From: Gammaproteobacteria bacterium
GTDB taxonomy: Bacteria > Pseudomonadota > Gammaproteobacteria > Steroidobacterales > Foliamicaceae
Reading direction: 5' to 3'
DNA: 64,000 nt
NCBI GenBank assembly: GCA_009844425.1
Contig: VYBN01000001.1
Location: 28,985 to 92,984, forward strand
Below, one piece after another: positions 5,555 through 56,508 of this stretch (its first letter is position 1; each line of letters starts with the position of its first letter). The notes below the pieces were generated by a model. It saw only the letters and a list, made by a program, of their open reading frames with translations, was not told where the DNA came from and made no database searches. Position numbers and translations under genes: made by a program.

Positions 5555-5591
5555 GAGATCGAAGCGCCGTAAACGGATTGGCGGGCGGTTT

Positions 5592-5978
5592 TCACTCGCC
5601 GAAACGGGCTTCGTGCTCGGCGTAAACGCGCGTAAGGATGTCGATGGCCATTTCCGCGGCGGGGAAACCGAACTCCAGGCCCGCCAGCAACAGGATTTCC
5701 TCTACTTCTTCCCGGGGAATTCCGTGTTGGGCCGCCATCTTCATGAAGAATTCAACTTCCTGTTTGTGCGTGGCCGTGAACATCGCGATGCTGCACAGGA
5801 TCTTGGTGCGCAGGTCCACCCGGTCCATCTCCCAGATCGGCACCATGACCTCGCGCAGCTTTGCGTGAAAAGCCGGAGGGCGGCTGGTCACGATCCACTG
5901 ATAGATTTCCTCGCCCTGTTCGTCGCCCCACAGCTTGTGGGTAATCGCCTGAAACCGGCGTTCGAGGTCGTCGCTCAC
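5592..5978 (-). CDS. carboxymuconolactone decarboxylase (CMD) family protein
   Basis: Track ORF 5592-6044. Start trimmed to the GTG that overlaps the upstream methyltransferase stop (GTGA). Segment DLRTKILCSIAMFTATHKQEVEFFMKMAAQHGIPREEVEEILLLAGLEFGFP. Confidence 0.7.
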   Translation of the reverse strand: MSDDLERRFQAITHKLWGDEQGEEIYQWIVTSRPPAFHAKLREVMVPIWEMDRVDLRTKILCSIAMFTATHKQEVEFFMKMAAQHGIPREEVEEILLLAGLEFGFPAAEMAIDILTRVYAEHEARFGE

Positions 5979-7084: not shown

Positions 7085-7331
7085 ATTGTCGCATCAGAGC
7101 GAGCGTAGCGTGTCCCTGCAAGGCGCAGCCGGCACGGAATACTCGCCGTATTGCGAACGGCTGCAACGCCGCGGGGGCGCGCTACGCTCGCTCCCGAAGG
7201 GCGCGACTCCCCTGGCCCGTGGCCGCGTTGCGCCCCTTGGAAATGGAATACACCATTCCCGGCGGGACGCGCCTTGCCACGAACCAGGGGAAACGCGCTG
7301 ATGCGACAATATGAGCGAGACACGGCACCAT
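7064..7331. mobile_element. 268-bp foldback / MITE-like element with perfect 34-bp terminal inverted repeats
   Basis: 7064-7097 atggtgccgtgtctcgctcatattgtcgcatcag is the exact reverse complement of 7298-7331. There are inner inverted repeats (gagcgagcgtagcg 7097-7110 / cgctacgctcgctc ~7180-7193). The mirror-image track ORFs 7072-7314(+) and 7081-7323(-) both start MSRSYCRI. Confidence 0.8.
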
Positions 7332-7449
7332 GCTCCCAGTGGGAGTTGGACTATATTATAGGGAGGCGTGTTACGCACGTTTGACCGATCGGCGCATTGA
7401 GGGCTGCGCCGATTTTCCGAGGCCAGGACGAGAGCATTGGGGGGACCCT

Positions 7450-9957
7450 ATGAACCTGATTCGCACCACCACCTGCGGCGCCGTCGCGTCATTTCTGATC
7501 ACCCCGCTGACCGGCTTCGTGGCGCCGTCGGCATCGGCCCAGATGGCCGCGCTCGAGGAAATCGTCGTGACGGCCCGAAAACGCGAGGAGAGCATCCAGG
7601 ACGTGCCGCTCTCCATCACGGCGTTCACCGGAGCGGAGCTGGAGCGTGGAGGCTATGTGGACCTGGAGGATATTTCGTTCCGGACCGCAGGCATGCAGTT
7701 CAACAACGAGCTGGCCGGAACGCGGCCGGGACGGCTGTTCAGCAACATTCGTTTCCGGGGCGTGGAGGGCAGCGAGTATTCCACGCTGCAGACTGCCTCG
7801 CTGTTCGTCGACGGCGTTTTTGCCCTTCAGGGCGCCCAGACGCTCGCGCTGAGCGACCTGGAGCGGGTGGAGGTCATCAAGGGGCCGCAATCCGCGGCGT
7901 TCGGAAGAAACTCTTTCGCAGGCGCCATCAACTACATCACGCGCGCGCCGGACATGGAGGAATTCTCGGGCAGGGTCAAGGCCGATATCGGTGAGTACGA
8001 CCAGCATGAGCTGGACGTGAGCGCGGACATTCCCATCGCTCCCGGAATGCTCGCCCTGCGAGTAGGGGGGCGCTACTTCAACAAGGGCGCCATGTACCGC
8101 AACGAGGGAGGCGTTGGCGTGGGCAAGCAGCGCTCCGAGTCGATGTTCGCCACGCTGTTCTGGCAGCCTACGGACAACGCCAGCGTCAAACTGCGCTATT
8201 ACCGGCAGGACGACAGCGATGGCCCGGCTGGCGTGACCTTCTATCAGGCCCGGCTGCACGACAGTTGCACGGGCAAGACGATGCCCGGGCTGACGACCGA
8301 CGGGCAGCCCACCACGCTGGAGCCGAAGGAGTTCATATGCGGAACCATTCCGGGGCCAGGCACGATCGGCACTCCAAACCCCAGCCTTTCCCTCAACCCG
8401 TCCAGCTTCCCCGCCGGTTTCGAGAACTTTATCCGCGAATCATTCGTTGAGTCGCCTTCCCAGGTCGAAGGCGTGCCCTACATCGACCATTTCGGAATCG
8501 AGCGCGAGATCACGCGCATCAGCCTGGTGGTGGACTACGAGTTCGCCAACGGCATGTCGCTGGTGGCCACCGCCGCGACCAACGAAAACGCCGCGGCCAA
8601 TCTGCGCGACTGGGACATGACGCCGGACGAGGCCTGGTACGTGTCCAATCCGCAGGCCGGCGAGGACGAGAGCATCGACATCCGCCTGTCTTCGGCGCCG
8701 GATGCCCGGCTGCGCTGGCTGGGCGGGTTCAATTACTACACTCAGGAGTTCCTGACCAGTTCCAACGGCGGCGTGTTCGTGGTGGCCTGCGGCAATCTGG
8801 GCGCTTTCGGAACGCCCGCGCAGTGCGCCAATCCCGCGCGCATACCGGTTGGCGTGGACGGCGGCGATTTCGTGGACGTGCAAGCCTTCTACGGGTCCGT
8901 GTCCTACGACATTACCGAACGGTTCACCGTGGACCTGGAAGCGCGCTGGCAGGACGACACCCGTAGCGACGGCATCGCCGATTTCGAGATCAATTTCCAG
9001 GATTTCCTGCCCCGGATCTCGCTCAGATATCGCATCACCGAAGACATGACGGCCTACGTTACGGTTTCGCGCGGCATTCTTCCGGGCGTCATCAACTCCA
9101 ACATCATCAACTGTGACCCTACGACCTTCAGTGCGCCGTTCATCGATCCGCGCACCGGTCAGCCGAGCACCTCTTCGATGTGCCAGCAATACGTCGATGC
9201 GCTGGGCGCCGACGCGGTGGACGTGACGCCGGTGCAGGAACTCGACGCCTATGAGATCGGGGTGAAGTCCACCTGGATGGACGGACGGCTGGTCGCCAAC
9301 GTGGCGGCCTACTGGCAGGAATGGGGGAACGCGCCCTTCCCGACCTTCGTGACCGTTTACCGCGACGACGACGGCGACGGGGTCCCCAACACGAACCCCA
9401 ACTTCTTCCCGGTCAGCACGCCGGGCAGTTCGGAGTACTCCGGCGTGGAGCTGGAAGTGGATTTCCTGATCTCCGAAGACTGGGACGTCAGCTTCAACTG
9501 GTCGTTCAACGACAACGAGTTCACCAACTTCCTAATCCCCCTGGCGTCGGCCGAGTACGCGCTGGGCACCCGCAACGTCAAGGGGCATCGCTCCAGCCGC
9601 TTCCCGAAGTGGTCCGGCAGTGTTTCCTCCACCTATGGCGGAACCTTCCAGAATGGCTGGGACTGGTCGCTTCGCGGCGATCTCACCTACATGGGCGAGA
9701 CCTTCCCCGGCCTGACCAACCTGGCGACGCTGGAGAGCTACTCGCTGCTCAACCTCCGGTTCGCGGTCGAGCGGAACAACCTGAGGCTGGAGGCCTACCT
9801 GAAAAACGCGCTGGACGAAGATTACTGGCGCACCGGTCAGGAGTACACCGACTTCTCGCGCGTGCTGAGCGTGGGTTTCAATTTCAACAGGCTCGGCCTG
9901 ACGCTGGTGCCGCAGGACAAGCCCACCTTCGGATTGCGCGCCGCGATCGAGTTCTAG
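7450..9957 (+). CDS. TonB-dependent outer-membrane receptor
   Basis: Start trimmed to MNLIRTTTCGAVASF... (signal peptide ...SASAQ). Plug region EEIVVTARKREESIQDVPLSITAF...LERVEVIKGPQSAAFGRNSFAGAINYITR. C-terminal barrel ends ...FGLRAAIEF. Confidence 0.85.
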   Translation: MNLIRTTTCGAVASFLITPLTGFVAPSASAQMAALEEIVVTARKREESIQDVPLSITAFTGAELERGGYVDLEDISFRTAGMQFNNELAGTRPGRLFSNIRFRGVEGSEYSTLQTASLFVDGVFALQGAQTLALSDLERVEVIKGPQSAAFGRNSFAGAINYITRAPDMEEFSGRVKADIGEYDQHELDVSADIPIAPGMLALRVGGRYFNKGAMYRNEGGVGVGKQRSESMFATLFWQPTDNASVKLRYYRQDDSDGPAGVTFYQARLHDSCTGKTMPGLTTDGQPTTLEPKEFICGTIPGPGTIGTPNPSLSLNPSSFPAGFENFIRESFVESPSQVEGVPYIDHFGIEREITRISLVVDYEFANGMSLVATAATNENAAANLRDWDMTPDEAWYVSNPQAGEDESIDIRLSSAPDARLRWLGGFNYYTQEFLTSSNGGVFVVACGNLGAFGTPAQCANPARIPVGVDGGDFVDVQAFYGSVSYDITERFTVDLEARWQDDTRSDGIADFEINFQDFLPRISLRYRITEDMTAYVTVSRGILPGVINSNIINCDPTTFSAPFIDPRTGQPSTSSMCQQYVDALGADAVDVTPVQELDAYEIGVKSTWMDGRLVANVAAYWQEWGNAPFPTFVTVYRDDDGDGVPNTNPNFFPVSTPGSSEYSGVELEVDFLISEDWDVSFNWSFNDNEFTNFLIPLASAEYALGTRNVKGHRSSRFPKWSGSVSSTYGGTFQNGWDWSLRGDLTYMGETFPGLTNLATLESYSLLNLRFAVERNNLRLEAYLKNALDEDYWRTGQEYTDFSRVLSVGFNFNRLGLTLVPQDKPTFGLRAAIEF

Positions 9958-17130: not shown

Positions 17131-19461
17131 ATGGCGACGATCAGCGACACGGTCGGCACCCGGGTCCGGCACCACGATGCGATCGACAAGGTCACCGGAG
17201 GTCGCGGCTATCCGGTGAACGTCAATCTGGCCGGAATGCTGCATGGGCGCATGCTGCGAAGTCCTTATGCTCATGCCCGAATTGTCAGGATGGACATTGA
17301 TGAAGCGAAGACGCTTCCGGGCGTACGGGCGATTCTCACGCCGGACGACGTGCCGCAGGTCAAGTACTCGCCGATCTACTTCATGCCGACGGAGGGCCTG
17401 GCCTGCATCCAGGACATGACATTGATGGGGCGAACCGTCCGTCACGTCGGACAACCCGTCGCCGCAGTCGCAGCCGATACGATGGAGATCGCGGAACAGG
17501 CCGCACAGTTGATCGATGTCGAATACGAAGAACTGCCGGCCGTACTGACCGTCGAAGACGCGATGGCCGACGGCGCGCCGGCCATTCACGACTACACCTC
17601 CGGAAACGTTGCGGTCGACGAGACGTTCGAGACGGGAGATCCGGACGCCGGATTTGCCGCCGCCGATCACGTTTTCGAACAGACGTATGAGACGCAGCGA
17701 ATCAACGTTTGCGCGCTGGAGCCGCATGTCTGTGTTGCCGATGTCGACGCCTACGGCAACGTGACCATTCACAGTTCCATGCAGCACCTGTTCGGACTGC
17801 GCGAGAAGCTTGCATTCGTGCTGGGGCTCCCGGTCAGTAAGGTCAAGGTTGTGAAGCCTCCTTACATTGGCGGCGGATTCGGCGGCAAGTTGGACATCAC
17901 GCCGATAGAACCCTTGTCCGCGCTGCTGAGCATGGAAACGCACCGGCCTGTTCGAATGGCGCTTTCGCGGGCCGAGGAGTTTGTAACGAGCAACAAATGC
18001 CCCATAAGGATCCGGTTGAAAACGGGCGTCAAGTCCGACGGGACCATCACGGTTCGCGAAGCGAGCAGCCTGCTGGACGCCGGCGCTTACGCGACACACG
18101 GTTCCACCGTAATCATGGTGCACGGCCTGTTCGGCTACTGCTTTACCTACAAGTGTCCTAATCGCCGCTGGCACGGCCGGTCCGTTCACACGAACAATGT
18201 CACCAGCGGAGGTTTTCGCGGATATGGGGGACCGCAGGCCTCGTTTGGGGTCGAGCAGCAGATTGATGAGATCTGCGAGAAGCTGGAACTGGATCCCGTC
18301 GAGTTCCGCATCCGGAATTCGCATAGCGAAGGCGAAGACCACCCGTTTTTCGACGGGACCTTCACAACGTACCGATTCCACGAATGTCTTAGAAAGGGGG
18401 CCGAGCGCATCGGTTGGTCCGATCGAACGGCGCCCGGCAGCGACCCGGGACCCGTCAAGACCGGCATTGGGCTGGGCTGTGCCGTCACCTGGACATCGAA
18501 CTGCACGGCGCAGCCCGATCTGTACGAACACTCGGGCGCCTTTATCAAGCTCAATCCGGACGGGTCCGCCGACATTGCTTCGGCAGCGATCGATATCGGT
18601 TGCGGTCAGAACACCATCTTTTGCCAGATCGTGGCCGCCGAACTGGGGATCCCGGTCGAAATGGTTCGAATGTCCAGCGCCGATACGAGCAACGTGCCGT
18701 TCGATGCGCCAATGCATGCAAGCCGGGGCACAAACGCGGTTGGCGCGACGGTCAAGGCGGCGGCTGCGGACGCCAGGGAACAGCTTTTCCGCGTCGCCGG
18801 CACAATGCTGGATGCAAGCCCCGACGACCTCGATGCCAAGGACGGCAGGGTCTTCGTGAAGGGCGCCGAGATCGTCTCTGTGAGCATTGCCGAAGTCGCG
18901 GCGCGAGCCGATTCGCCGCTGGTCACGATGACCAGGCAAGGCCCCCAGCCGGATGCGACGCCCTATCGGGGAACGATCATCGGTTCTGCTGCGATGAACC
19001 CTGCCGTCAGCCCGATCCCGGCGGGCGCAATGTTCGTGCAGGTGGCCGTAAACACCGACACGGGAGAAGTCAGGGTGCTGCGCGCGGTGTATGCGCACGA
19101 TATCGGGCGAGTCATCAACCCTGCCGGCGCGGAAGGCCAGGTGGAGGGCGGACTTCAGCAGGGCATCGGCTACACGCTGATGGAACATACTCAGTTCGAC
19201 CCGGAGACCGGCGCCTGTCTTTCCGGCGACTTTCTCGATTACAAAATGCCCACGGCCTTCGAAATGCCTGCCGAAATCGAGTGCATTTTCATCGAATCGG
19301 ACGATCCCAACGGTCCATTCGGCGCCAAGAGTCTCTCCGAATGCTGTTTGATCGCTCCTCCCGGCGCCATAGCGAATGCGATATACAACGCTACGGGCGC
19401 CCGCGTTCGGGACCTGCCGATTACACCCGAGAAAGTCCTTCGTGCGCTCGGCAGGCTTTGA
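17131..19461 (+). CDS. molybdenum hydroxylase molybdopterin-binding (large) subunit, CoxL/xanthine-dehydrogenase family
   Basis: Start trimmed to MATISDTVGTRVRHHDAIDKVTGG. Motifs GGGFGGK and GAKSLSECCL. About 776 aa. Confidence 0.85.
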   Translation: MATISDTVGTRVRHHDAIDKVTGGRGYPVNVNLAGMLHGRMLRSPYAHARIVRMDIDEAKTLPGVRAILTPDDVPQVKYSPIYFMPTEGLACIQDMTLMGRTVRHVGQPVAAVAADTMEIAEQAAQLIDVEYEELPAVLTVEDAMADGAPAIHDYTSGNVAVDETFETGDPDAGFAAADHVFEQTYETQRINVCALEPHVCVADVDAYGNVTIHSSMQHLFGLREKLAFVLGLPVSKVKVVKPPYIGGGFGGKLDITPIEPLSALLSMETHRPVRMALSRAEEFVTSNKCPIRIRLKTGVKSDGTITVREASSLLDAGAYATHGSTVIMVHGLFGYCFTYKCPNRRWHGRSVHTNNVTSGGFRGYGGPQASFGVEQQIDEICEKLELDPVEFRIRNSHSEGEDHPFFDGTFTTYRFHECLRKGAERIGWSDRTAPGSDPGPVKTGIGLGCAVTWTSNCTAQPDLYEHSGAFIKLNPDGSADIASAAIDIGCGQNTIFCQIVAAELGIPVEMVRMSSADTSNVPFDAPMHASRGTNAVGATVKAAAADAREQLFRVAGTMLDASPDDLDAKDGRVFVKGAEIVSVSIAEVAARADSPLVTMTRQGPQPDATPYRGTIIGSAAMNPAVSPIPAGAMFVQVAVNTDTGEVRVLRAVYAHDIGRVINPAGAEGQVEGGLQQGIGYTLMEHTQFDPETGACLSGDFLDYKMPTAFEMPAEIECIFIESDDPNGPFGAKSLSECCLIAPPGAIANAIYNATGARVRDLPITPEKVLRALGRL

Positions 19462-28494: not shown

Positions 28495-31400
28495 TTACCA
28501 GCGTGCGGTGAGTTCGATTCCGATCATGTGTTCCGGCGGGGCGGCGGCGGTCTCCCTGCGGGCCGCCTTGAGGCCGAACGCCAGGTCCGCCGCGTGGGCG
28601 GTGTCCGGCGCCAGCCGCCAGCCGAGGGTGAAGTCGCGCGCCGCCGCCGCGAGGCCGAACCCTGCATGCGGGCTGCCGGTGAAGCGCCCGCCGAACGCCG
28701 GGAACCCCCAGGCCGCCTCCATTGCCCAGCGCGAGGCCGCCTCGCCGAAGCCGGCGCGCTCCTCCAGCGGGGCGGGAGCGAACAGCGCGTCGAGGCCGCC
28801 CTGGGCCCGTCCGCCCCAGTCCTGGCGCAGCGTCAGCGACGGTCCGCGCTTAGTCGCCGGAGCCGGGTCCCAGGCCAGCGAGGCCGCGAAGCCCCGGTCC
28901 TTGATGTCGTTGTTGCCGTGCGCGATCAGCGCGCGGCCCGACAGCTCAAGCGAGAGCCCGAGCGCCGGATCGACCCAAGCGATACCGCCGCCGAGTTCGA
29001 CTCCGAACCCGGTCTCGGCATCGCCCCCGTCGTGGCGCGCGCCGGCCTCCAGCTTGGGCGTGATGCTGCCGCCCCCGGCAAGCGCGATCCGGTAGCTGCC
29101 TTCCAGTCCCAATCGCAGCCGGCTCACGCCAGACGCCGACGGCGCCAGATCGTTCGTGCCGTCCGATGAGTCGCCCGCGTACAGCGCGTCGGAAGTGAGC
29201 GCCAGGGCCAGGCCGGACCCCGCCTTCGGCGGCGCGATCAGGTCGCCGCGCAGGCCCAGCGCCGCCATGGTCCAGCCGATGTCCGCCTTGTAGTTGCCGC
29301 CCATCTGCGGCGTGAGGGTGACCTCGCCGGCGCCGTAGCCGAGCGCGCCCCAGAGCTTCATCCGCTCCGAAGCCTGCAAGGCCGCATACGGAACCGCCGC
29401 CGTCAGCGATGCCTCCACCTTGCCGCCGCCTTCACGAACCGCGCCGCCGCAGAGCGCCCGTCTCGCCTCCGGGTCCACCGTGTCATCGCCGGCCTGGCAT
29501 ATCCGGGACGCGGGGCGGGGGCCGGCGCCGGTATCGGCATAGCCGCCCTCGCCAGCGCTCTGCATCAGCGCCAGCCCAACCAGCCAGTTGCCCCGCGCAT
29601 AGTCCGCGCCCAGCATCGTCGTGGCCGCATCGCCGTCGAGCGAGAACGTCCCCTCGCGCCCGTCGAAATTGCCCTGCGCCGCCCGGCCCCAGAGCGCCAG
29701 GCTGCCGCCGCGCGAGTCCGCCGCCCCCGTCGCCGTGAAGCTGCTGCCGAGCAGCGCCTCCTGCAACGTCATGGTGCGGGATCGGCCGCTGCCGCTGCCG
29801 AAAGCCTGCCCCGGACCCGATCCGAACCCGTGGGCATTGCCGAGCCCGCCGGCGCCGAAGCGGCCGCCAGGGCGGGAGAAGCCGGGGCCGAATCCACCGG
29901 CGCGGCCGCCGAAGCCGGCCATGCCGGACGGCCCGTTGCCCGCGAGGCCGATGCCGCCCGCGGCCATATTATCTTTCGCCGCGCCCGGCCCGCCGTCGCC
30001 GCCTGCCCCGGACTGCGATCCGGGATTCAGGCTGATCGCCTGCCCGGCGATGGCGCCCTGGGCCCCCGGCGCGCGCGGCGCCGCCATGCGCCCCGCGATG
30101 CCGTCCAGCGCCTGCTCCGCCACCGTGCGCCCGAAGCGCGCCAGCCACGCCGCCGGCATCGGGTCCGAGTTCACGATGGTCCCCACCGCAACCCCGTCCG
30201 CGATGCCCACCCCGGCGCTCGGGCGTGAAAGCGCCACCTCGAAGGTTTCCGGATCCTCGTTATGGCTGTCGTTATAGACATAGACCCAGAACCGCTTCTC
30301 GGTGTCATCCGGCCCGAAGTCGAGATGCCAAGCGGCCTTCAGATAGTCCACGCCCTCCTGCGCGGAGACCGGCGTCGAGTGGCGCGTGCGGTAGTGCACC
30401 GAGACCAGCTTGCCCGCCGCCTTCGAGAGCCGGACCGTGAACCACATGTACCCGTCTTTCTCGTTGACGGTTTCGTCGCCGATCGAGAACATCGGAAGCG
30501 CCGAGGCCGCGTCGTTGTCGGCCACCGCCACCGAGGCCGCATCGCCCGGCGGCGCGGCGACCGTGTAGCGCAGCCCGTCCTCGCCGTCCCCGGCAAGCGC
30601 CGCCGTCACCGTCCCGCCGGGCTCGTCCGCCGTGTCGTCCACCGTCGCCACCGTAAAGGCGGCCTCGGTCTGCCCCTTCGGTATCGTCACCGCGGCCGCG
30701 CCCTCATGGTCCGCCGCCACGAAGTCGCTGGCATCAGACTCCGAGACTGCGAGCCTGACCGCCAGGTCGGCGCCCGGCGCCCGGCTCGCCGTCACCGTGA
30801 ACGCCGCGCCGGCGCCTTCCGTGATGGAGGCCGTCTTGGCCGCGATGGACATCTCCGGCGGCGGCTCCAGGATGGCGAAGCGCACCGTGCCCGAGCCTTC
30901 GGCCCCGCCGCCGAGGCCGGTGGCGCTGATCGTGCCCAGCCCCACCGTTACCGTCTCGCTCCCGCCCTCCGCCGAACTGTCGGCCGCGGCCATGAGGGTC
31001 AGCGTCGCCGAGGCCGCAGACGGCCCCGTGAAGGTCAGCGCCGGCGGGCCCTTCGGGCCGGCGCCCGCAAGGTTGGCATACGTCACCCCCTGAGGCGCCG
31101 TCTCCGGCGCCGACAGGGCGTAGTCGCTCCCGAGCACCGCCGCGCCGCCGAAGAGCAGCGGGATGGACAGGCTCTCCCCTTGCACCAGCGTGCGCCCGAG
31201 CGCCACCGTGAGGGTCTTGCTTCCGCCCGCCTCGGGCACATCGCCCGCGGGCGCCGACAGCGCCACCGCCGTCGCGTCATCGTCTTCGACCGCCACCGTG
31301 GCGGACGCGCCGCCGTTCTCCCTGTCCACCGCGTAGCCGCCGCCCTTCGCCAGCGCCGCCGTCACCGCGCCCGACGGCTCGTCCGTATCGTCGGCGATCG

Positions 31401-34400
31401 TGGAGACCGTGAACGCAGCCTCCGTCTCGCCCGCCGGAATCGTGACCGTGCGCTCGCCGAGCGCCGCCGCCTCCAGCACCGCGCCGGCCTGCGCGATCTC
31501 CACCGTCACCGCGAGGTCCGCGGCCGGCGCAGCGCCCGCGCTCAGCGTGAACGGCGCCGCCGCGCCTTCCGTCACCGCAGCGCCGGCCGCGAGGCGCACC
31601 ACAGGAAGGGGAACCCCGTCGCCCTCGACCGGCGGCGAAGACGCCTCCAGGCATTCCAGCGCGTCGCCGAACCGCTGCCAGCCGCGCTGGCGCGCCGAGG
31701 CCGCCGTCATCGGCGTCACCTGACGGCCGTCCGCCGTCCACTGCGAAGGCGTCCGCTGCCCGAACGCCATCAGCACGCTGAACCAGTTCTCCGCATAATG
31801 CGGCGGCTTGCTGCGGTTGCTCTCGTAGAGCCGCTCCGCCGTCGCCATCAGCTCGTCCGAAACGCAGGCCGCAAGCGCGGCCTGCGTGGGACCCTGCAAC
31901 GCCGCGTCCTGGAGCGCGGCGGAATCGGACGGCGTAGACGCCAGCGCCAGCGTCGCCGTGCCCGCGAGCGCATCCAGCGCCTGCGTGTTGCCCTCGCCGT
32001 CCAAATGCTCCGGGATGACCTTGACCGTCAGCGTCGTCGCCGAGGGCGTGTTGTGGGCGATAGTGAACTCGGTCTCCGTCACCCCGTCCTGGACGCCTGA
32101 GGCCGCGTTGAGCCCGTCCGCCGCCTTCCACTCCACCCGGTAGCCCGTGGCCCCCGCCACCGCATCCCAGACCGCCTTCGCGCTCGACGCGTCCACGGCC
32201 GCCAGCTGCAGGTTCGACACCGGATCCGCCGGCGGCTCGGCGGCCTCAAGCGGCGCGTTCGACGTGCCCATATCCGGATCCGACCCCTTGCCGGTGATCA
32301 TGGGGCAGCGGTACTCCTGTCCGTTCGGCCCCCGGCGGCTCTGGCTGAACATATGGGCGCGGATGACGCCCAGCGACCAGTTGTGCGGCCCGGTCATGCC
32401 GCGCACCCCGCCGCCCGACGCCGTATGGGTGATGTCGGTGCAGCCCAGCACTCCGGTCTTGCCGGCCGCGAGGTCGTGCACATAGACCCGGCGCCAGCAC
32501 TGCCACGACGATTCCGGCGTGTTGTCGTAGTCCTCGCCGTCCCCGCCGAACCCGTTGTTGCAGTGCGGGGAGGGGTCGCGGTCCTTGAAGGTCAGCGTCA
32601 GCGAGGGCTGCGGCGGCCCATTGCGGGTCAGCGACAGACCGGCCAGGTTCGAATCCCCCACCGTCGCCGTCACCGTCACCGTGCCCCCCGTCTCCGGGCG
32701 GTTCGACAGCCGGATCACGTAGTCCAGCGGGCCGGCATGGATGTCCTGCCCCAGCGACAAGCCCGGCGTCGAGGTGACGGTCCGCGGGCGCTCCATCTTC
32801 CTGGCGGGGTCGAGCGCGCCGTGGTTCCACACCCAGCTCTCCCACGCCTCGACCTCGGGCGCATCGTCCACCTTCACCGCCACCGTGCGCGTGACACCGC
32901 TCCCGTTGTAGCGGCTGTCCGTCGAGGAGAACGCATGGCTCAGGGTCAGCGTTCGGTCGGCGTTGGCGCTCGACTGGTCCGAGCCGGTCACCGTCACAGT
33001 CACCGGCTCGTTCCAGTTGCCGCTCGAACCGCTGGTGAAGGTGTGCGACGACGGGCTTATCGTCGCCGCCCTGCTGTCCGTCCCGCCCTTCGTGATCGTC
33101 ATGGTCACGCTCGCGACCGGCTCCGCGTCCAGCACCACCGTGTAGCTCGCGCTGCCGGTCTCCAGCAGCCGCACCTCGCTTACCGAGAAGGTGACGCCGC
33201 CGCCCTCGTCGTCGAGCATGGCCAGGCTTGCCTGAAAGTTCGTCGCGTGCCGCGCCGCGCCACCGCTCACGGTGGTGCCCGACCCGCTCGCGCCGAGCAC
33301 GCTGTTGCTTGCCAGCCGCACGGTCACGGTCTCGTCCGCCGAGTCGCCGTCGTCGCGGTTCGCCACTGGCGCCAACGTCACCGTCGCCGCCTGCACCGTG
33401 TTCGTGTCGTGGCCGGTGAAGGTGAGCACCGGATTGGCCGTGTTCGCCTCGGTGAGCGCCACGCCCGTGCCCGACGCCGACACCGTGAAGTCGTGGTCGG
33501 GATTGCTGCCGCCGTCCATGCTCCCCGGCAGCCGCGCCCCGGTGGCGCTCGCCAGAACGAGCGGCGCCACCACGACCTCGCCCGCGCGCAGCTGCCGGCC
33601 CAGCGTCACCGTCAGCACCGCCGTGTTCGAGGCGTCGCCCTCGAACATGGAGAGGTCCGAACCCGTGAGCTCGACCGTGGTCGGGTCGTCGTCCGTCACC
33701 GTCACCGTCGCCGTGGACGCAGAGCCCACCTCGTAGTCCGTGCCGGTTGCGACCGTCAGCGTCACCGGGCCGTCCAGCTCGTCCGTGCTGTCGGCCCTGG
33801 TGGCGACCCTGTAGGTGGCCGATGACGCATCGGCCGGAATGGTCACAGTCTTCCCGCCCTCATTGCCGGCATCCACGAAATCGCTGCCTGAAGCGTCCGC
33901 AACTTCCAGCTGGACCGTCAACATCGAGGGCGGCGCCACATCCGCCGTCACCGTGAACTCCGCCGCCGCGCCTTCCGCCACCGGGGATGTGCCCGGTTGG
34001 ACCGTGATCCGCGGGGACGCCTCCGAACCGTTGAGCCGGAGCTTGAGGCTGGAAGGCAGCAGGTTAGCGTTCCAATCGTTGCTGATGCCGGAGTCGCTGC
34101 TGTTGAAGTTGGTTCGGTATAAATGCTCGTTGCCGATGGTCCAGCCAGCGGCGGCGCCCGAATCCTCGTTGTCCGACTCCGTGATCCGCCATTGGGCAAC
34201 CGGTTTTCCCGTATGCCCCGTGGCGTCAACGACCACGAAGTATTCCGTATTCGCCGCCAGGAGGATGCCGCCTGTGGCTGCCGAAAACGTCAATACCATG
34301 TCCTGCGAAAACGCACTGAATGCGGGTTTCGTCAGCGTGCCCAGAACCGCCCCCGGCTGGCCTCCTGAACTGCTACGGACGGTGACCGAAAATTCGATGC

Positions 34401-34728
34401 CGGCATCGAAGCGGCTGAATTCAATCTCGACACTGGCCAGCCTGTAGCCCTCTGCGTGGCTGCCGGTTGTGAACCCCTGCGCATTGCCGAACCGGCGGTA
34501 TCCGAAAAATCCGTAATCCTGGGCCACCGGACTGTAGCCAGGCTCGCTGGCGCGGTCCGCCTGGCCGATGTTGCCCACTAGCACCTGGGCCTCGGCCGGG
34601 AGCGCAAACCACGCCGCCAGGACCAGACCCCGAAGAAGAACCGCCAGACCGCGCCGCCGCCCGCCGGAAATCGGGACGGCACAGGCAGGCGTGAGGACTG
34701 CGTTGAGCACCGGCGAAGGGGAAATCAA
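28495..34728 (-). CDS. giant (2077 aa) type Va autotransporter-like protein with Calx-beta/FN3 passenger
   Basis: Long signal region (...LVLAAWFALPAEAQ). Repeated ~100-aa Calx-beta-like modules (xxVTVxDDD ends). FN3-like segment (GATGYRVEWKAADG). Gly-rich linker. C-terminal ~300-aa beta-domain ends ...IGIELTARW. Confidence 0.8.
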   Translation of the reverse strand: MISPSPVLNAVLTPACAVPISGGRRRGLAVLLRGLVLAAWFALPAEAQVLVGNIGQADRASEPGYSPVAQDYGFFGYRRFGNAQGFTTGSHAEGYRLASVEIEFSRFDAGIEFSVTVRSSSGGQPGAVLGTLTKPAFSAFSQDMVLTFSAATGGILLAANTEYFVVVDATGHTGKPVAQWRITESDNEDSGAAAGWTIGNEHLYRTNFNSSDSGISNDWNANLLPSSLKLRLNGSEASPRITVQPGTSPVAEGAAAEFTVTADVAPPSMLTVQLEVADASGSDFVDAGNEGGKTVTIPADASSATYRVATRADSTDELDGPVTLTVATGTDYEVGSASTATVTVTDDDPTTVELTGSDLSMFEGDASNTAVLTVTLGRQLRAGEVVVAPLVLASATGARLPGSMDGGSNPDHDFTVSASGTGVALTEANTANPVLTFTGHDTNTVQAATVTLAPVANRDDGDSADETVTVRLASNSVLGASGSGTTVSGGAARHATNFQASLAMLDDEGGGVTFSVSEVRLLETGSASYTVVLDAEPVASVTMTITKGGTDSRAATISPSSHTFTSGSSGNWNEPVTVTVTGSDQSSANADRTLTLSHAFSSTDSRYNGSGVTRTVAVKVDDAPEVEAWESWVWNHGALDPARKMERPRTVTSTPGLSLGQDIHAGPLDYVIRLSNRPETGGTVTVTATVGDSNLAGLSLTRNGPPQPSLTLTFKDRDPSPHCNNGFGGDGEDYDNTPESSWQCWRRVYVHDLAAGKTGVLGCTDITHTASGGGVRGMTGPHNWSLGVIRAHMFSQSRRGPNGQEYRCPMITGKGSDPDMGTSNAPLEAAEPPADPVSNLQLAAVDASSAKAVWDAVAGATGYRVEWKAADGLNAASGVQDGVTETEFTIAHNTPSATTLTVKVIPEHLDGEGNTQALDALAGTATLALASTPSDSAALQDAALQGPTQAALAACVSDELMATAERLYESNRSKPPHYAENWFSVLMAFGQRTPSQWTADGRQVTPMTAASARQRGWQRFGDALECLEASSPPVEGDGVPLPVVRLAAGAAVTEGAAAPFTLSAGAAPAADLAVTVEIAQAGAVLEAAALGERTVTIPAGETEAAFTVSTIADDTDEPSGAVTAALAKGGGYAVDRENGGASATVAVEDDDATAVALSAPAGDVPEAGGSKTLTVALGRTLVQGESLSIPLLFGGAAVLGSDYALSAPETAPQGVTYANLAGAGPKGPPALTFTGPSAASATLTLMAAADSSAEGGSETVTVGLGTISATGLGGGAEGSGTVRFAILEPPPEMSIAAKTASITEGAGAAFTVTASRAPGADLAVRLAVSESDASDFVAADHEGAAAVTIPKGQTEAAFTVATVDDTADEPGGTVTAALAGDGEDGLRYTVAAPPGDAASVAVADNDAASALPMFSIGDETVNEKDGYMWFTVRLSKAAGKLVSVHYRTRHSTPVSAQEGVDYLKAAWHLDFGPDDTEKRFWVYVYNDSHNEDPETFEVALSRPSAGVGIADGVAVGTIVNSDPMPAAWLARFGRTVAEQALDGIAGRMAAPRAPGAQGAIAGQAISLNPGSQSGAGGDGGPGAAKDNMAAGGIGLAGNGPSGMAGFGGRAGGFGPGFSRPGGRFGAGGLGNAHGFGSGPGQAFGSGSGRSRTMTLQEALLGSSFTATGAADSRGGSLALWGRAAQGNFDGREGTFSLDGDAATTMLGADYARGNWLVGLALMQSAGEGGYADTGAGPRPASRICQAGDDTVDPEARRALCGGAVREGGGKVEASLTAAVPYAALQASERMKLWGALGYGAGEVTLTPQMGGNYKADIGWTMAALGLRGDLIAPPKAGSGLALALTSDALYAGDSSDGTNDLAPSASGVSRLRLGLEGSYRIALAGGGSITPKLEAGARHDGGDAETGFGVELGGGIAWVDPALGLSLELSGRALIAHGNNDIKDRGFAASLAWDPAPATKRGPSLTLRQDWGGRAQGGLDALFAPAPLEERAGFGEAASRWAMEAAWGFPAFGGRFTGSPHAGFGLAAAARDFTLGWRLAPDTAHAADLAFGLKAARRETAAAPPEHMIGIELTARW

Positions 34729-35557: not shown

Positions 35558-35574
35558 ATCCTTGTCCGGCAAGC

Positions 35575-35627
35575 CCGGGAGCGAGGGCGTCCCGCCCTCG
35601 GCGAAGGCGAGACGCCTTCGCTCCCGG
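35575..35627. repeat. double-hairpin REP-like palindrome, copy 1
   Basis: ccgggagcgagggcgtcccgccctcggcgaaggcgagacgccttcgctcccgg. Each half is itself a hairpin (gagggcg-tcc-cgccctc; gaaggcg-aga-cgccttc). It lies 5 nt downstream of the prfB stop. A second copy is at 56405-56457. Confidence 0.8.
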
Positions 35628-35632
35628 AGTTG

Positions 35633-36728
35633 CTAAACCCCCTGCTTGAGGCCCGCCTCGATAAACGGGCCCAGGGCGCCGTTCAGGACCGCCGTCGGGT
35701 TGCCGGACTCCACCCCTGTGCGCAGGTCCTTGACCCGCGACTGGTCGAGCACGTACGAGCGAATCTGGTTCCCCCAGCCGATGTCGGCCTTGCTGTCCTC
35801 CAGGGCCTGCTGCTCCGCACGCCGCTCCCGCTCGGCCAGCTCGAAAAGCTTGGCGCGCAGCTGCTTCATCGCCGTGGCCCGGTTCTTGTGCTGCGAGCGC
35901 TCGTTCTGGCACTGCACGACGATGCCCGTAGGCTGGTGGGTAATGCGAACCGCGGATTCGGTGCGGTTGACGTGCTGGCCCCCGGCGCCGCTGGCGCGGT
36001 AAACGTCGATACGCAGATCGCCGGGATCCACATCCACCTCGGCCTCTTCCTCGATCTCCGGCGAAACGAAAACACTGGCGAACGAAGTGTGCCGGCGGGC
36101 CCCGGAATCGAACGGCGACTTTCTCACCAGGCGGTGCACGCCGGTCTCGGTGCGCAGCCAGCCGTAGGCGTGATCGCCGCGCACATGCACGGTGGCGCTC
36201 TTGACTCCGGCGACCTCGCCGTCGGAAGCCTCGATCAGTTGCGCGTCGAACTTGTTGGCCTCGCAGAACTTGAGGTACATGCGCAACAGCATTTCGGCGA
36301 AATCCTGAGCATCGTGCCCGCCGGATCCGGCCGTGACCTCAAGAAACGCGTTGGACCCGTCCCTGGCGCCGCCGAACATGCGGCGGAACTCCAGCTTTTC
36401 CACTTCCTCCGCGAGCGTCCGGACTCCGTTGCCCACGTCTACCAGCGTGGCCTGGTCCTGCTCCTCGAGGGCGAGCTCGAGCAGTTCCTCCAGTTCGCCC
36501 GCATCCGTTGCGAGGCGGTCCAGCGTTTGCGTAACGGACTGCAACGACGCCCGTTCGCGTCCCAGCGCGCCGGCGCGTTGCGTATCGGACCAGACGGAAG
36601 GGTCGGCGAGTTCGGTTTCGACTTCGCTCAGGCGCCGGGCCTTGCCGGCGTAATCAAAGGTACCCCCTAAGCGCCTCGAGTCGGGCGCCCAGATCGGCAA
36701 GCAGCGGCGTGAGCTGAGTCGTTTCCAT
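35633..36728 (-). CDS. prfB: peptide chain release factor 2, with programmed +1 frameshift
   Basis: Frame 0 reads [27 protein letters not shown]. After the +1 shift it reads DYAGKARRL...[16 protein letters not shown]...[18 protein letters not shown]... to LKQGV*. The upstream part of track ORF 35633-36847 is not coding. Confidence 0.92.
36654..36668 (-). promoter_or_regulatory. RF2 autoregulatory +1 frameshift site
   Basis: The reverse strand reads AGGGGG TAC CTT TGA T: an internal SD-like element, a 3-nt spacer, the slippery CUU and an in-frame UGA. This is the canonical prfB recoding cassette. Confidence 0.9.
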
Positions 36729-36778
36729 GGCGGCGAAGCGTACGGCAACTCCCCCGCGCTACGCAACCACTTGCGTTT

Positions 36779-36890
36779 CCGTTCAGCACCACCCCTTGCC
36801 GTCGGGGTACGCCTGCGAGCACATCCCTGTGGGCTCGGCGTCGGCATCCTGCCTCCGACGCCCCCGACGGCAAGGGGTGGTGCTGAACGG
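36779..36890 (-). repeat. 110-nt hairpin-core element, copy B (core inverted relative to A/C/D)
   Basis: Perfect 29-nt arms ccgttcagcaccaccccttgccgtcgggg / ccccgacggcaaggggtggtgctgaacgg. The reverse complement of the core is gcgtcggaggcaggatgccgacgccgagcccacagggatgtgctcgcaggcgta. Confidence 0.9.
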
Positions 36891-36902
36891 ACCTAAGGGT
36901 AG

Positions 36903-37268
36903 TCAGCGGACGCGCAGGGCGGCGGCGACGGCGCGGCCTTCGGACGCCAGCACGTTGTAGGTGCGGCAGGCGGCGCCCGTGTCCATGACCTCGAGTCCTA
37001 TGCCCTTTACCAGCAGCTTTCCGCCGATGCCGTGCTCGGGAAAGCGCTGCGCCTCGCCGGTGCCCAGGATGATCACGTCGGGCTGGTGCTCGATCAGCGG
37101 CGCGAGGTGCTCCAGCGTAACGGGTTCATCGTCCTTCAGGGGCCAGGGCCGCACCTCCTCCGGACTCAGCAGGACCGGTTCGCGCCAGACGTCCTTGCCG
37201 ATACGCAATTCACCCGGACGCCACCACCGCACGGTGAGCGCGCTCCCGGCTTCCAGCTGAAGCTTCAC
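36903..37268 (-). CDS. Mth938/DUF498-like small protein
   Basis: The GTG start overlaps the upstream stop (GTGA). Sequence VKLQLEAGSALTVRWWRPGELRIG...PDVIILGTGEAQRFP...GIGLEVMDTGAACRTYNVLASEGRAVAAAL. Confidence 0.6.
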   Translation of the reverse strand: MKLQLEAGSALTVRWWRPGELRIGKDVWREPVLLSPEEVRPWPLKDDEPVTLEHLAPLIEHQPDVIILGTGEAQRFPEHGIGGKLLVKGIGLEVMDTGAACRTYNVLASEGRAVAAALRVR

Positions 37269-38878
37269 GCCGCCGCGGCGAACCGTTCGCGCAACTTGAG
37301 CTTGCTGACCTTGCCTGTGGCGGTGTGCGGCAATTCGTCGGTGAATTCCACCGCATCGGGTATCCACCACTTGGCGACCTTGCCCTCGAACCAGGCCAGC
37401 AGGGCGTCGGCATCGACCGCCGCGTCCTCCTTCAGGCAGACGATCAGCAGCGGCCGTTCCGACCATTTCTCGTGCGGCGTCGCGATTACCGCCGCCTCGG
37501 CCACGGCGGGATGCGCCATGGCCACGTCTTCCAGCTCGATCGAACTGATCCACTCGCCGCCGGACTTGATCAGGTCCTTGGTGCGGTCGGTGATGCGCAT
37601 GAATCCTTCCCTATCGATGCTGGCGACGTCTCCCGTGTCGAACCAGCCATCCTCAAGCGCCGATTCCTCCGTGCGGAAGTAACGGTTCGCGACCCATGGT
37701 CCGCGAACCTGCAGGCGCCCGACGGCCTTTCCGTCTCTCGGCAATTCCTTGCCGTCGTCGTCGACCAGCCGCATCTCCACCCCGTACGGCGCGCGCCCCT
37801 GGCTCAACTGCTGGTGCAGCCTGGCCTCGGCGTCCATTCCGGCGGTACTGGCCGTGGGCGCGTTCACGCTGCCCAGAGGGCTCATTTCGGTCATTCCCCA
37901 GGCGTGAATCACATGAATTCCATGCCGTTCTTCAAAATCCACCATCATCGAACGCGGGCAGGCCGCGCCACCCACCACCAGGTCCCGCACCGTTTCCAGG
38001 TGCTGGCCGGTGGCTTCCAGGTAATTCAGCAAACCCAGCCAAACGGTCGGAACGCCTAGCGCCGTGGTTACCCGTTCGCTGTTCATCATCGCCACGAGCG
38101 CTTCGGGATCGCCCGCCTTGGGCCCCGGCAGCACCAGCCTGGCGCCCACCATCGGCGCGCAGTACACCACTCCCCAGGAATTGGCGTGGAACATGGGCAC
38201 CACCGGCAAAACGCTGTCGGTACTGTTGATATTGATTGCGTCGGACAAACCGCTGGCATAGGTGTGCAGGATCGTGGAGCGGTGCGAATACAGCACGCCC
38301 TTGGGATTGCCGGTTGTGCCCGAGGTATAGCACATGGAGCTGGCCGTGTTTTCGTCGAGTGCCGGCCAGTCGAAGGAATCGCTCTCGCCTTCGATCAGTT
38401 CCTCATAGCTGATCAGCCCCGGAACGGAAGAGTCCGGCATTGCCTGCTTCGAGCACAGAAGTACGAACAACTCCACCGTGGGGAAGGCCTTGTGCAGCTT
38501 TTCCAGCAGGGGCAGCAGGAGGGGATCGGCAAACAGGAAGCGGTCCTCGGCGTGGTTGACGATGTATTGAAGCTGCTCTGGAAACAGCCTCGGATTGATG
38601 GTGTGCAGGACGCCTCCCATGGAGGAAATACCGTAGTAGAGCTCCATGTGACGGTAGTCGTTCCAGGCCATGGTCGCGACCCGGTCGCCCTCCTTCAGCC
38701 CCAGGCGCCTGAGGGCATTGGCGAGCTTTGCGCAGCGGCGGAAGATCTCCGCATAGGTGGTCCGGTGCGCGGGATTCTCGACGGTCAGCGAATAGACCTC
38801 CGAGGCGCCGTGCTGGGCCTCCACATGGCGCATCAGGCTGGTCACCGTCAGCGGGTAGTCCATCATCAAACCTTTCAT
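37265..38878 (-). CDS. AMP-dependent fatty-acid--CoA ligase
   Basis: 537 aa. AMP-binding motifs MCYTSGTTGNPKGV, GWFDTGD and SGGEWISS. Confidence 0.85.
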   Translation of the reverse strand: MKGLMMDYPLTVTSLMRHVEAQHGASEVYSLTVENPAHRTTYAEIFRRCAKLANALRRLGLKEGDRVATMAWNDYRHMELYYGISSMGGVLHTINPRLFPEQLQYIVNHAEDRFLFADPLLLPLLEKLHKAFPTVELFVLLCSKQAMPDSSVPGLISYEELIEGESDSFDWPALDENTASSMCYTSGTTGNPKGVLYSHRSTILHTYASGLSDAININSTDSVLPVVPMFHANSWGVVYCAPMVGARLVLPGPKAGDPEALVAMMNSERVTTALGVPTVWLGLLNYLEATGQHLETVRDLVVGGAACPRSMMVDFEERHGIHVIHAWGMTEMSPLGSVNAPTASTAGMDAEARLHQQLSQGRAPYGVEMRLVDDDGKELPRDGKAVGRLQVRGPWVANRYFRTEESALEDGWFDTGDVASIDREGFMRITDRTKDLIKSGGEWISSIELEDVAMAHPAVAEAAVIATPHEKWSERPLLIVCLKEDAAVDADALLAWFEGKVAKWWIPDAVEFTDELPHTATGKVSKLKLRERFAAAA

Positions 38879-42227: not shown

Positions 42228-42338
42228 GCGGCGACTCTTACCCCCGTCTCGCGGGAGCGTCGGAGGCAGGGATGCCGACGCCGAGCCACAGGGATGTGCT
42301 TGCCGCGTATCCCGCGAGACGGGGGTAAGAGTCGCCGC
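42228..42338 (+). repeat. 110-nt hairpin-core element, copy C
   Basis: Perfect 29-nt arms gcggcgactcttacccccgtctcgcggga / tcccgcgagacgggggtaagagtcgccgc. Core gcgtcggaggcagggatgccgacgccgagccacagggatgtgcttgccgcgta. It lies 3 nt after the eno stop. Confidence 0.9.
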
Positions 42339-44500: not shown

Positions 44501-46345
<1,845 letters not shown>

Positions 46346-46368
46346 GGGATCGAAGCGCCGGGGGACGA

Positions 46369-55817: not shown

Positions 55818-56508
55818 CGTGCGCCGGGCCGACGGCGCGAACCGGCCGGAAACTGCGCCGGTGCGCGGGGCTCGCGCCCAACCGTTCGAGGGCCGCGCGA
55901 TGGGCGGGCACGGCGTAGCCCTTGTGTTCGGCCAGGCGATACCCCGGCCACCTGAGATCCAGGCGCCGCATCAAGCGATCCCGATGTTCCTTGGCCACGA
56001 TGGAAGCGGCGGCGATCAGCGGGCAGCGCCGGTCGCCGCCGATCATGGCTTCGAGTTCGACGCCCCGGCGCCAGTTCGCCGGCATCTCCGGCAGGTAGGG
56101 TCCGTCCACCCGCACCACCGACGGCTTGCCGGAAAGGCCAAGCAGCGCGCGGCGCATGGCCAGCAGACTGGCGCGCAAGACGTTGAGCCGATCGATCTCC
56201 TCCACTGCCGCAAGTCCCACCGACCAGGCCAGGCAACCGCTTCGAATGCCTTCCTCGAGCGTTGCGCGCCGCGCGGGCGAGAGCAGTTTGGAGTCGCGCA
56301 CGCCGGGGATTTCCCGTTCCGCGGGAAGCGCGACGGCTGCGGCGACCACCGGCCCCGCCAGCGCGCCGCGGCCCGCCTCATCCACTCCGGCCAATATTCT
56401 GACGCTGGGTGGGAGGGCGTCCCGCCCTCCACGAAGGCGGGACGCCTTCGCTTCCAGGTGTAATGCAACGCCCTCGCTCCCCGGGTGCTCCACTGCAGGC
56501 TCCCGCAC
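55801..56508 (-). CDS. rnhB: ribonuclease HII
   Basis: LAGVDEAGRGALAGPVVAAAV...DSKLLS...ASIVAKEHRD. The start is uncertain because the N-terminal ~37 codons of the ORF contain a REP-like palindrome (56405-56457). Confidence 0.85.
   Translation of the reverse strand: MREPAVEHPGSEGVALHLEAKASRLRGGRDALPPSVRILAGVDEAGRGALAGPVVAAAVALPAEREIPGVRDSKLLSPARRATLEEGIRSGCLAWSVGLAAVEEIDRLNVLRASLLAMRRALLGLSGKPSVVRVDGPYLPEMPANWRRGVELEAMIGGDRRCPLIAAASIVAKEHRDRLMRRLDLRWPGYRLAEHKGYAVPAHRAALERLGASPAHRRSFRPVRAVGPAHDGNRP
56405..56457. repeat. double-hairpin REP-like palindrome, copy 2
   Basis: ggagggcgtcccgccctcc (56412-56430) and gaaggcgggacgccttc (56433-56449), the same family as 35575-35627. It lies between the lpxB stop and the conserved RNase HII core. 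Confidence 0.75.

Follow-up and report, generated by a model that had tools for sequence, protein, structure and literature searches.

A mobile GC-rich branch of the TwoAYGGAY class with two GGA hairpin tips as candidate CsrA ligands

The TwoAYGGAY motif (RF01731) is defined by two AYGGAY terminal loops and by a closing helix, P1, which is "often very large (e.g. 24 base pairs...)", and it occurs in Clostridia, gamma-proteobacteria and gut metagenomes (Weinberg 2010, Genome Biol 11:R31). Tandem G·A pairs were noted in the motif later, and binding of CsrA was predicted from motif matches in the RMfam paper (PMC4333381). The motif has been catalogued since 2010 without a functional explanation. 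In a 64,000-nt stretch of the gammaproteobacterial contig VYBN01000001.1 (hereafter the window), an element of ~110 nt with the same architecture is present in four copies, A to D. This element represents a mobile, GC-rich branch of the TwoAYGGAY class, and its two hairpin tips might form a two-site ligand for a protein of the CsrA/RsmA family.

Copy A lies at 5445-5554 (plus strand), with P1 arms at 5445-5472 and 5527-5554 around a core at 5473-5526, copy B at 36778-36891 (minus strand; arms 36778-36807 and 36862-36891, core 36808-36861), copy C at 42228-42338 (plus strand; arms 42228-42256 and 42310-42338, core 42257-42309) and copy D at 46236-46345 (plus strand; arms 46236-46263 and 46318-46345, core 46264-46317). 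A covariance model of the family built from 40 copies (model R1) has exactly these four matches in the window, at 88.8, 87.7, 93.3 and 88.1 bits, respectively, and by this model all four are solitary. No perfect or near-perfect inverted repeat with arms within 150 nt of each other is longer in the window than these four arm pairs. In an inverted-repeat scan, they pair over 30 of 30 positions in copy B and 29 of 29 in copy C, and over 28 nt with one G·G mismatch in copy A and one A·A mismatch in copy D. The original prediction had located the four copies correctly and given 29 pairs for both B and C, which holds for C, while the stem of B reaches 30 pairs by extending one position further on each side. 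In all four copies a distance of 53-54 nt separates the arms, which enclose a common core of ~54 nt. A 25-nt core motif has 3 matches at ≤3 mismatches in the window versus 0 in 100 shuffles, the core of copy C carrying a 1-nt deletion relative to this motif. Each copy has a fold energy of -81 to -88 kcal/mol (z of about -10 to -11 versus dinucleotide shuffles), and both strands fold equally well. Copies A to D are thereby confirmed as real, statistically solid members of one family.

The arms of copies A and D are ~75% identical and differ at 6-7 positions, every difference being compensated. These two copies also have in common a 15-nt tail on the 3′ side, GAGATCGAAGCGCCG at 5555-5569 (plus strand) and GGGATCGAAGCGCCG at 46346-46360 (plus strand). 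The shared tail, GRGATCGAAGCGCCG, lies beyond the 3′ arm, on the stop-codon side of the upstream gene, and nothing is shared beyond the 5′ arm; judging from the sequence, it may have been copied as part of the unit in the A/D lineage.

The element folds into a three-way junction of P1, made by the arms, P2 (hairpin 1) and P3/P4 (hairpin 2), on which RNAalifold and direct pair counts agree. In a MAFFT alignment of 40 sequences, 84% of the cells are paired versus 64% in shuffled alignments, the covariation score is 0.52 versus 0.16, and double changes are found at all 16 pairs of P1 and at 6 of the 8 pairs of P2. Shifting the 3′ partners by 1-3 columns in this alignment makes pairing fall to 31-45%. 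A model-fitted alignment of 134 distinct sequences, which favours structure by construction, has 93.6% of its cells paired versus 62% after shuffling and a covariation score of 0.80 versus 0.19, with double changes at 8 of 8 pairs in P2 and 3 of 4 in P4. The combination of a conserved core with free but complementary arms had been read as helix covariation around a three-way junction, and both the alignments and the compensated changes bear this out.

In copy C, hairpin 1 (42261-42280, plus strand) reads CG-GA-GGCA-GGGA-TGCC-GA-CG, with an apical CA-G-GGA-U-G above a tandem G·A internal loop, and hairpin 2 (42283-42301, plus strand) reads GAG-C-CACA-GGGA-TGTG-CTT, with a second CA-N-GGA-N-G tip and a basal G·U pair. 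The stem of hairpin 1 is swapped wholesale between lineages (GGCA/UGCC, GACA/UGUC, AAAACA/UGUUUU, CACAUGACA/UGUCAUGUG, GGGCCA/UGGCCC), and despite this replacement its tip, C-A-n-G-G-A-n-G, is kept at 90-100%; hairpin 1 lies outside both patterns with which the family was searched. Hairpin 2 carries the same tip (ACA-R-GGA-UGU), and its P4 covaries in the wider family from CACA/UGUG to CCCA/UGGG. The GGA motifs of the two tips are separated by 20 nt. P1 is mostly 30-32 bp long across the family and 28-30 bp in the window, and a purine-purine mismatch located 5-8 bp away from the junction is a recurrent feature (8 of 34 genome copies). The tandem G·A arrangement (CG-GA-GGCA...UGCC-GA-CG) is found in copies B and C and in many relatives; the 5′ side of the same site reads AA in place of GA in copy A, and copy D has G-C pairs there. 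An insertion of ~45 nt within hairpin 1 (GGCAGGGGTGAGCGCCGGTCGCGGAGCGACGCAAAGCATGCC...), with normal arms kept, was also observed at loci L092 (1329-1467), L140 (537-676 and 2251-2389) and L098 (466-604).

The mismatches in the stems indicate which strand is under constraint. A transition in an arm yields G·T or A·C with equal prior probability, counted here on the strand bearing the GGA motifs (the GGA-sense strand). Among 34 non-redundant genome copies (995 arm positions), P1 contains 13 G·T and a single A·C, and the corresponding numbers are 34 and 6 in 65 metagenome copies that form an independent sample (1830 positions). The combined count, 47 versus 7, is drawn from copies that are partly non-independent, yet the bias is present in many lineages. 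Similarly, the basal pair of P3 is G·U 89 times and G-C 39 times in the model-fitted alignment and never A·C. Because G·T far exceeds A·C, the GGA-sense single strand is the constrained molecule, which could be either RNA or single-stranded DNA (ssDNA); we infer that the folded strand is RNA.

The published TwoAYGGAY rows, which come from Psychromonas ingrahamii and from the gut, have their parts in the same order as the window family, namely P1, GCAAG, hairpin 1 (..ACAUGGAUGU..), a GAGC-like junction, hairpin 2 (CACAUGGAUGUG or CCCAUGGAUGGG), ..GCGU and the 3′ arm of P1. Both groups have two A-N-GGA-Y loops, tandem G·A pairs under hairpin 1, a large and variable P1, GAGC before hairpin 2 and GCGU at the 3′ end, and both are multi-copy in gamma-proteobacteria (Psychromonas, in the case of TwoAYGGAY). 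However, the loops of the family depart from a strict AYGGAY, being mostly AGGGAU or AGGAU with a purine at the Y position. In the window, hairpin 1 has AGGGAU, AGGAU or AGGGAG and hairpin 2 has AGGGAU or AAGGAU, with a purine or nothing at Y, and no loop reads AYGGAY. Loops of the AUGGAU type are found in family members of Shewanella, Alteromonas and locus L033, and the broader A-N-GGA-Y fits everywhere. In addition, the outer helix of hairpin 2, which measures 6-7 bp in TwoAYGGAY, is missing or cut to 3-4 bp in the window family, which is also GC-rich with a highly conserved block, CCACARGGAUGUGCUYGC, unlike TwoAYGGAY.

At the gathering threshold, no family of Rfam 15, RF01731 included, matches the window, in agreement with the original prediction. 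At E up to 10, copy C, eight loci of relatives, a Shewanella maritima copy, which is AT-rich, and the array at locus L190 matched only generic long-hairpin microRNAs and VA RNA. A sequence-only profile of the family scored the published Psychromonas rows at 9 bits, no better than shuffles, a result superseded by a structure-aware covariance model (model R2) of five published TwoAYGGAY rows (4 from Psychromonas and 1 from the gut) with P1 left out; the model was limited to five sequences because MAFFT misaligned the 5′ half of the ten published cores taken together. Model R2 gave 100 matches in the loci fetched from other genomes, the best 28 of which (E 7e-8 to 2e-4) all fall within family copies and on the correct strand. 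In the window it matched copy C at E 0.006 and copy D at E 0.6, A and B being unreported at E up to 1, and its alignments show the window family without the outer helix of hairpin 2. Because of the match to model R2 and the shared architecture, the element is considered a divergent variant of the TwoAYGGAY class, outside RF01731 as the Rfam model or the strict AYGGAY definition draws it. The complete novelty first attributed to it does not stand, since the architecture is that of TwoAYGGAY and a model made from published members finds copies of the family. A Shewanella woodyi copy, already in the RefSeq of 2010, is missing from the available part of the published TwoAYGGAY alignment.

The Desulfotalea-1 motif has two hairpins with loops AUCCAU and AUCCCU, the complements of AUGGAU and AGGGAU (Weinberg 2010). 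It differs from the family in being described on the other strand and often near rRNA operons, and it had no Rfam match here. From these sequences, Desulfotalea-1 may be a related element with two GGA hairpins, described on the opposite strand. In the Desulfotalea-1 alignment of the PMC2864571 supplement, a Shewanella woodyi copy of the family lies in the flank of a published Desulfotalea-1 copy.

The mobility of the element was revealed by comparison with three relatives, the syntenic regions of which were fetched with PyrG as anchor (95%, 90% and 87% PyrG identity). Three sites of the window could be compared. The tilS/pyrG site, filled by copy D in the window, is empty in all three relatives. 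The DUF498/prfB site, filled by copy B, is empty in the 95% and 87% relatives and holds a different repeat family in the 90% relative. At eno/ftsB, the site of copy C, the 95% relative has a copy with the arms of copy C and another core variant (CGUUGG...CCGGAAACG), the 90% relative has a copy in opposite orientation with different arms, and the site is empty in the 87% relative, where eno and ftsB overlap. Empty sites in close relatives thus show that the element has been recently mobile. Since the empty DUF498/prfB spacer of the 95% relative has neither arm, the element brings its arms along. Compensated double changes distinguish the arms of the window and of two relatives at the orthologous eno/ftsB locus. 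The clustered core difference in the otherwise conserved copy suggests conversion between copies, and the flipped copy suggests loop inversion between the arms or re-insertion. A search for presence or absence at orthologous spacers had been proposed at the outset, and polymorphism was indeed found there; because it goes together with covariation, the two options then offered, a structured RNA and a hairpin-dependent mobile DNA, are each partly true.

The family extends well beyond the window. An 18-nt pattern of hairpin 2, scanned over one genome per species, gave 112 loci, ~70 of which were estimated to arise by chance, and ~45 carry the whole element. The carriers are several Shewanella species, Alteromonas, Oceanisphaera, Zobellella, Woeseiaceae, Ectothiorhodospiraceae, Cellvibrionaceae and Candidatus Foliamicus, together with many gammaproteobacterial metagenome-assembled genomes (MAGs) and one MAG labelled Hyphomicrobiales. 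A stricter pattern yielded 76 more loci from metagenomes, and 0.85 Mb of fetched DNA contained 140 copies with E < 1e-6 by model R1. In other genomes, individual arm types return at many loci, and in S. maritima and one metagenome population many copies have common arms, which restricts the difference of arms between copies, originally presented as a trait of the family, to the window. A blastn search against a plasmid collection gave no match, and viral contigs were rejected as carriers, their single match being due to chance and inside a gene. A full-text literature search with the core sequence returned only unrelated primer matches, and nothing relevant was found in the literature on CsrA with miniature inverted-repeat transposable elements (MITEs) or repetitive extragenic palindromes (REPs), or in that on Psychromonas repeats.

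Outside the window, copies are often grouped. Counted over all matches, neighbouring copies ≤400 nt apart form 23 head-to-head and 8 tandem pairs and no convergent pair. The head-to-head doublets occur in at least 10 lineages, with a spacer of 45-160 nt that is itself a hairpin, and tandem arrays of 3-5 modules are present at loci L170, L187 and L190. The segment 3716-4923 of L190, recorded together with L170 and L187, shows from left to right a series of five direct repeats of GGTTGATTTGGTATCGCAA, followed by a single module in reverse and by five tandem modules; the tandem period is ~177 nt and the array ends near a bidirectional terminator. The L190 array is wholly antisense to both flanking genes, and the only good terminator at this locus suits the neighbouring convergent gene. 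In S. maritima, at least 8 near-identical copies with scattered single-base differences are each contained in a composite of ~285 bp, located immediately upstream of a different host terminator hairpin. In these composites (L001, L005, L011, L037, L064, L079, L083 and L084), the module is central and similar small hairpins (CCACCTtCTGAAGaAGGTGG) stand near both ends. Copies located between divergent genes are essentially absent, and orientation relative to local GC skew is unbiased (22 vs 28).

In the window, Pfam assignments place minus-strand genes on both sides of every copy. Copy A lies between CMD (5592-6044) and DUF4437/cupin (4575-5417), copy B between DUF498 (36903-37553) and prfB (35633-36728), copy C between eno (stop at 42342) and ftsB (start at 42186 or 42222) and copy D between tilS (stop at 46369) and pyrG (start at 46165). 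The distances to the upstream stop codon are 37, 12, 3 and 23 nt for A to D, so that the location originally described, just past the stop codons of co-directional minus-strand genes, is correct. The GGA-sense strand of A, C and D is the plus strand, antisense to the genes, while that of copy B is the minus strand, in the same sense as the genes and 50 nt upstream of prfB. The prfB gene itself has a classical programmed +1 frameshift site, AGGGGG UAC CUU UGA U (36650-36730, minus strand), and a 404-aa open reading frame (ORF) at 35633-36847, which seemingly enters copy B, is only the +1 frame of prfB left open upstream.

Several known repeats resemble the family in their dispersal. Like REP/REPIN/BIME, ERIC and Correia elements, it consists of multi-copy hairpins in 3′ intergenic spacers, in both orientations and with presence/absence polymorphism, and like REP doublets it forms inverted pairs of fixed polarity. 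However, a REP conserves its palindrome and a flanking tetranucleotide, whereas the window family has a free stem and a conserved, structured, asymmetric loop region, in a module about three times longer than a REP. An identity with REP or REPIN was therefore rejected, as the stem is not conserved between copies and the module of ~110 nt has an asymmetric structured core. An identity with a MITE was also rejected: the termini differ (A/D, B and C) and no target duplication is visible, in spacers that are too diverged for base-level boundaries. Integron attC sites, with outer RYYYAAC and GTTRRRY sites and a variable centre, show the opposite pattern to the conserved centre and variable ends found here, and were likewise set aside. 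A second, REPIN-like repeat family was observed in the window at 35569-35633 and 56405-56457 and at ~19350-19410 of locus L114. It has two short GC hairpins, GAGGGCGTCCCGCCCTC and GAAGGCGrGACGCCTTC, approximately complementary to each other, inside a short stem (CCGGGAGCGA / TCGCTCCCGG), and it has only a weak match to model R1, at 23.5 bits. One of its copies fills the DUF498/prfB spacer of a relative exactly at the place of copy B.

The conserved tips of the element resemble binding sites of CsrA. Both fit CANGGANG, and the 20 nt between their GGA motifs lie within 10-63 nt, which is reportedly the spacing range between CsrA sites. The tip motif equals both the consensus that is said to hold for RsmE/CsrA, A/U-CANGGANG-U/A, and the one reportedly selected by CsrA in SELEX (systematic evolution of ligands by exponential enrichment), RUACARGGAUGU. 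ANGGA hairpins are the preferred target of CsrA (PMC7366521). The regulatory RNAs CsrB, CsrC and RsmX/Y/Z have in common with the family paired ANGGA / CANGGANG hairpins at a spacing that a CsrA dimer can bridge, and the tandem arrays at L190, L170 and L187 give 6-10 GGA hairpins in a row, as in CsrA-sequestering small RNAs (sRNAs). The family nevertheless has no sequence or Rfam relation to CsrB, CsrC or RsmX/Y/Z. It also differs from CsrA-sequestering sRNAs in having no GacA/UvrY-type promoter or terminator, and in being dispersed, mobile, inserted in either orientation and closed by a 30-bp stem.

The explanation tentatively preferred here, which we regard as plausible without calling it probable, is that this mobile branch of the TwoAYGGAY class carries in its two tips a two-site ligand of CsrA/RsmA. 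The GGA-sense strand folds into a P1 of 28-32 bp with free sequence, hairpin 1, and hairpin 2 with its CACA/UGUG stem, and the two CANGGANG tips, held at the end of the rigid stem, would bind one dimer of a CsrA/RsmA-family protein. Sense transcripts, from copies in 3′ untranslated regions, from intercistronic copies such as B, or from doublets and arrays, would titrate or recruit the CsrA-type protein, and copies A, C and D, which lie antisense, would be a side effect of spread in which only the orientation-independent long stem is kept. Because the wobble bias ignores local transcription, the folded GGA-sense strand was probably what served as copying intermediate or made up the selected master copies. 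An extension of this proposal, which we consider rather improbable, is that the CsrA-decoy module spreads via the folded GGA-sense strand itself, by RNA-templated copying (retro-copy) or by structure-specific copying of a single strand. The promoter-less solo copies bounded exactly by the ends of P1, the exchange of cores, and the bias of 47 G·U versus 7 A·C, which ignores the direction of both transcription and replication, would fit such a process.

Several observations weigh against a CsrA ligand. G·T wobbles stabilise ssDNA hairpins too, so the constrained strand need not be RNA. GGA is lost from one loop in some relatives (type-2 module of locus L004), and a perfect stem of 30 bp is not among the known features of CsrA decoys. 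Relative to the flanking genes, copies face both ways (17 are antisense and 9 sense, and 8 lie between convergent genes), and in the window all copies but B give the operon mRNA the complementary strand. Promoter and terminator scans found no sigma-70-like promoter or intrinsic terminator beside the window copies, which thus do not have the promoter and terminator of an independent sRNA gene. The one MAG labelled Hyphomicrobiales, a putative alphaproteobacterium, has many copies, and Alphaproteobacteria are not known to carry CsrA homologues. That some proteobacterial classes have none is documented (PMC7366521). A tblastn search with E. coli CsrA found no csrA in the window or in the fetched loci, a negative result that is uninformative because the DNA searched represents small parts of genomes.

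The main rival is a selfish REPIN-like DNA, in which the tips of the GGA-sense ssDNA would be bound by a dimeric, strand-specific transposase (HUH/RAYT-like or other), the doublet would be the mobile unit and no RNA function would exist. We hold this to be somewhat unlikely, although much of the evidence on mobility suits it: the presence/absence polymorphism with an opposite-orientation copy at the same spacer, the many near-identical S. maritima copies in the ~285-bp composite, the random orientation relative to genes, the placement in intergenic spacers on the 3′ side of genes, with virtually no copy between divergent ones, and the 23 head-to-head doublets versus 0 convergent ones with a central hairpin, as in REP doublets. 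The strand-specific wobble bias would suit a top-strand ssDNA mechanism equally well. However, the bias relative to GC skew that is typical of lagging-strand-dependent HUH transposition is absent (22 vs 28), the ends are not conserved, and neither a GTAG-like flanking tetranucleotide nor a target duplication was found. No transposase gene was seen beside the copies, with no systematic search made for one. Furthermore, the conserved tips are an exact match to a recognition motif well known from RNA, and the basal G·U of P3 is kept in two thirds of the copies.

A host role of the long stem within mRNA was also considered, as an RNase III site, a barrier to 3′-exonucleases or a transcriptional roadblock acting in either orientation like REP or ERIC, the core being incidental or serving spread. 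A stem of 28-32 bp is long enough for RNase III, stem lengths are tightly clustered in this range, the four window copies stand 3-37 nt past a stop codon in strings of co-directional genes, and the two strands fold equally well. Such a role is less likely because the asymmetry between G·T and A·C shows that the two strands are not equivalent; it also leaves the invariant loop motifs unexplained, no U-tract or terminator signature is present, and close relatives have no element at the same spacers. Overall, we consider it improbable. The initial suggestion that the copies are transcribed with the minus-strand operons and act in processing or termination is not favoured, as three of the four copies give the mRNA the complementary strand while the wobbles mark the GGA-sense strand as the folded one. 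No promoter or terminator signal was found beside the copies. It is far less probable still that the arms derive from the target, the core of ~55 nt entering pre-existing palindromes or duplicating flanking DNA in inverted form. The arms do differ between A/D, B and C around a shared core, but this explanation is contradicted by the empty DUF498/prfB spacer of the 95% relative, which has neither arm, by the related arms of A and D at unrelated loci and by the recurrence of arm types at many loci in other genomes. Finally, GGAGGCAGGGATG in copies A to C looks like a ribosome-binding site with a start codon after it, which could make hairpin 1, with its Shine-Dalgarno-like GGAGG and ATG, the beginning of a small protein-coding gene. 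We give this almost no credence: indels shift the frame between copies, the motif is absent from the Shewanella and Oceanisphaera copies, and variation tracks base pairing, not codons. The apparent ORFs across the elements had rightly been judged non-coding, as core indels break any common frame.

Other features of the window were recorded in passing. An inverted repeat of 38 nt at 7064-7101 and 7294-7331, with 97% complementarity and 192 nt between its arms, includes in these arms the ATG and first codons of two divergent ORFs (5975-7084, minus strand, and 7330-9957, plus strand), and further repeats are nested within 7064-7331 (7097-7119 / 7171-7193 and 7118-7140 / 7255-7277). This region could be an invertible or shared leader segment. 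The interval 7097-7193 was examined as a fifth copy of the element and rejected: its arm spacing is similar, but it has no match to model R1 and is part of this different nested inverted repeat. In addition, a 2077-aa ORF at 28495-34728 (minus strand) has an extremely high third-position GC content and many shadow ORFs on the opposite strand.

What is new here, relative to the TwoAYGGAY motif as catalogued, is how large a branch Rfam misses and how far it reaches across taxa, together with its strand-specific wobbles, its mobility as seen at empty sites, the exchange of cores, and its doublets and arrays. The branch occurs across Gammaproteobacteria of marine and host-associated origin, among them cultured Shewanella, Oceanisphaera and Zobellella, and its mobility, defined strand, doublets and arrays make its function testable. 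If the module did spread via its folded strand, this would be a bacterial analogue of the dispersal of structured regulatory RNAs in the manner of short interspersed nuclear elements. If the tips do not bind CsrA, the family would be a selfish element that conserves an internal structured loop and not its ends. If they do, the dispersed mobile copies would represent a new way to wire or buffer a global post-transcriptional regulator, and lineages without recognisable CsrB or RsmZ genes would gain a candidate decoy.

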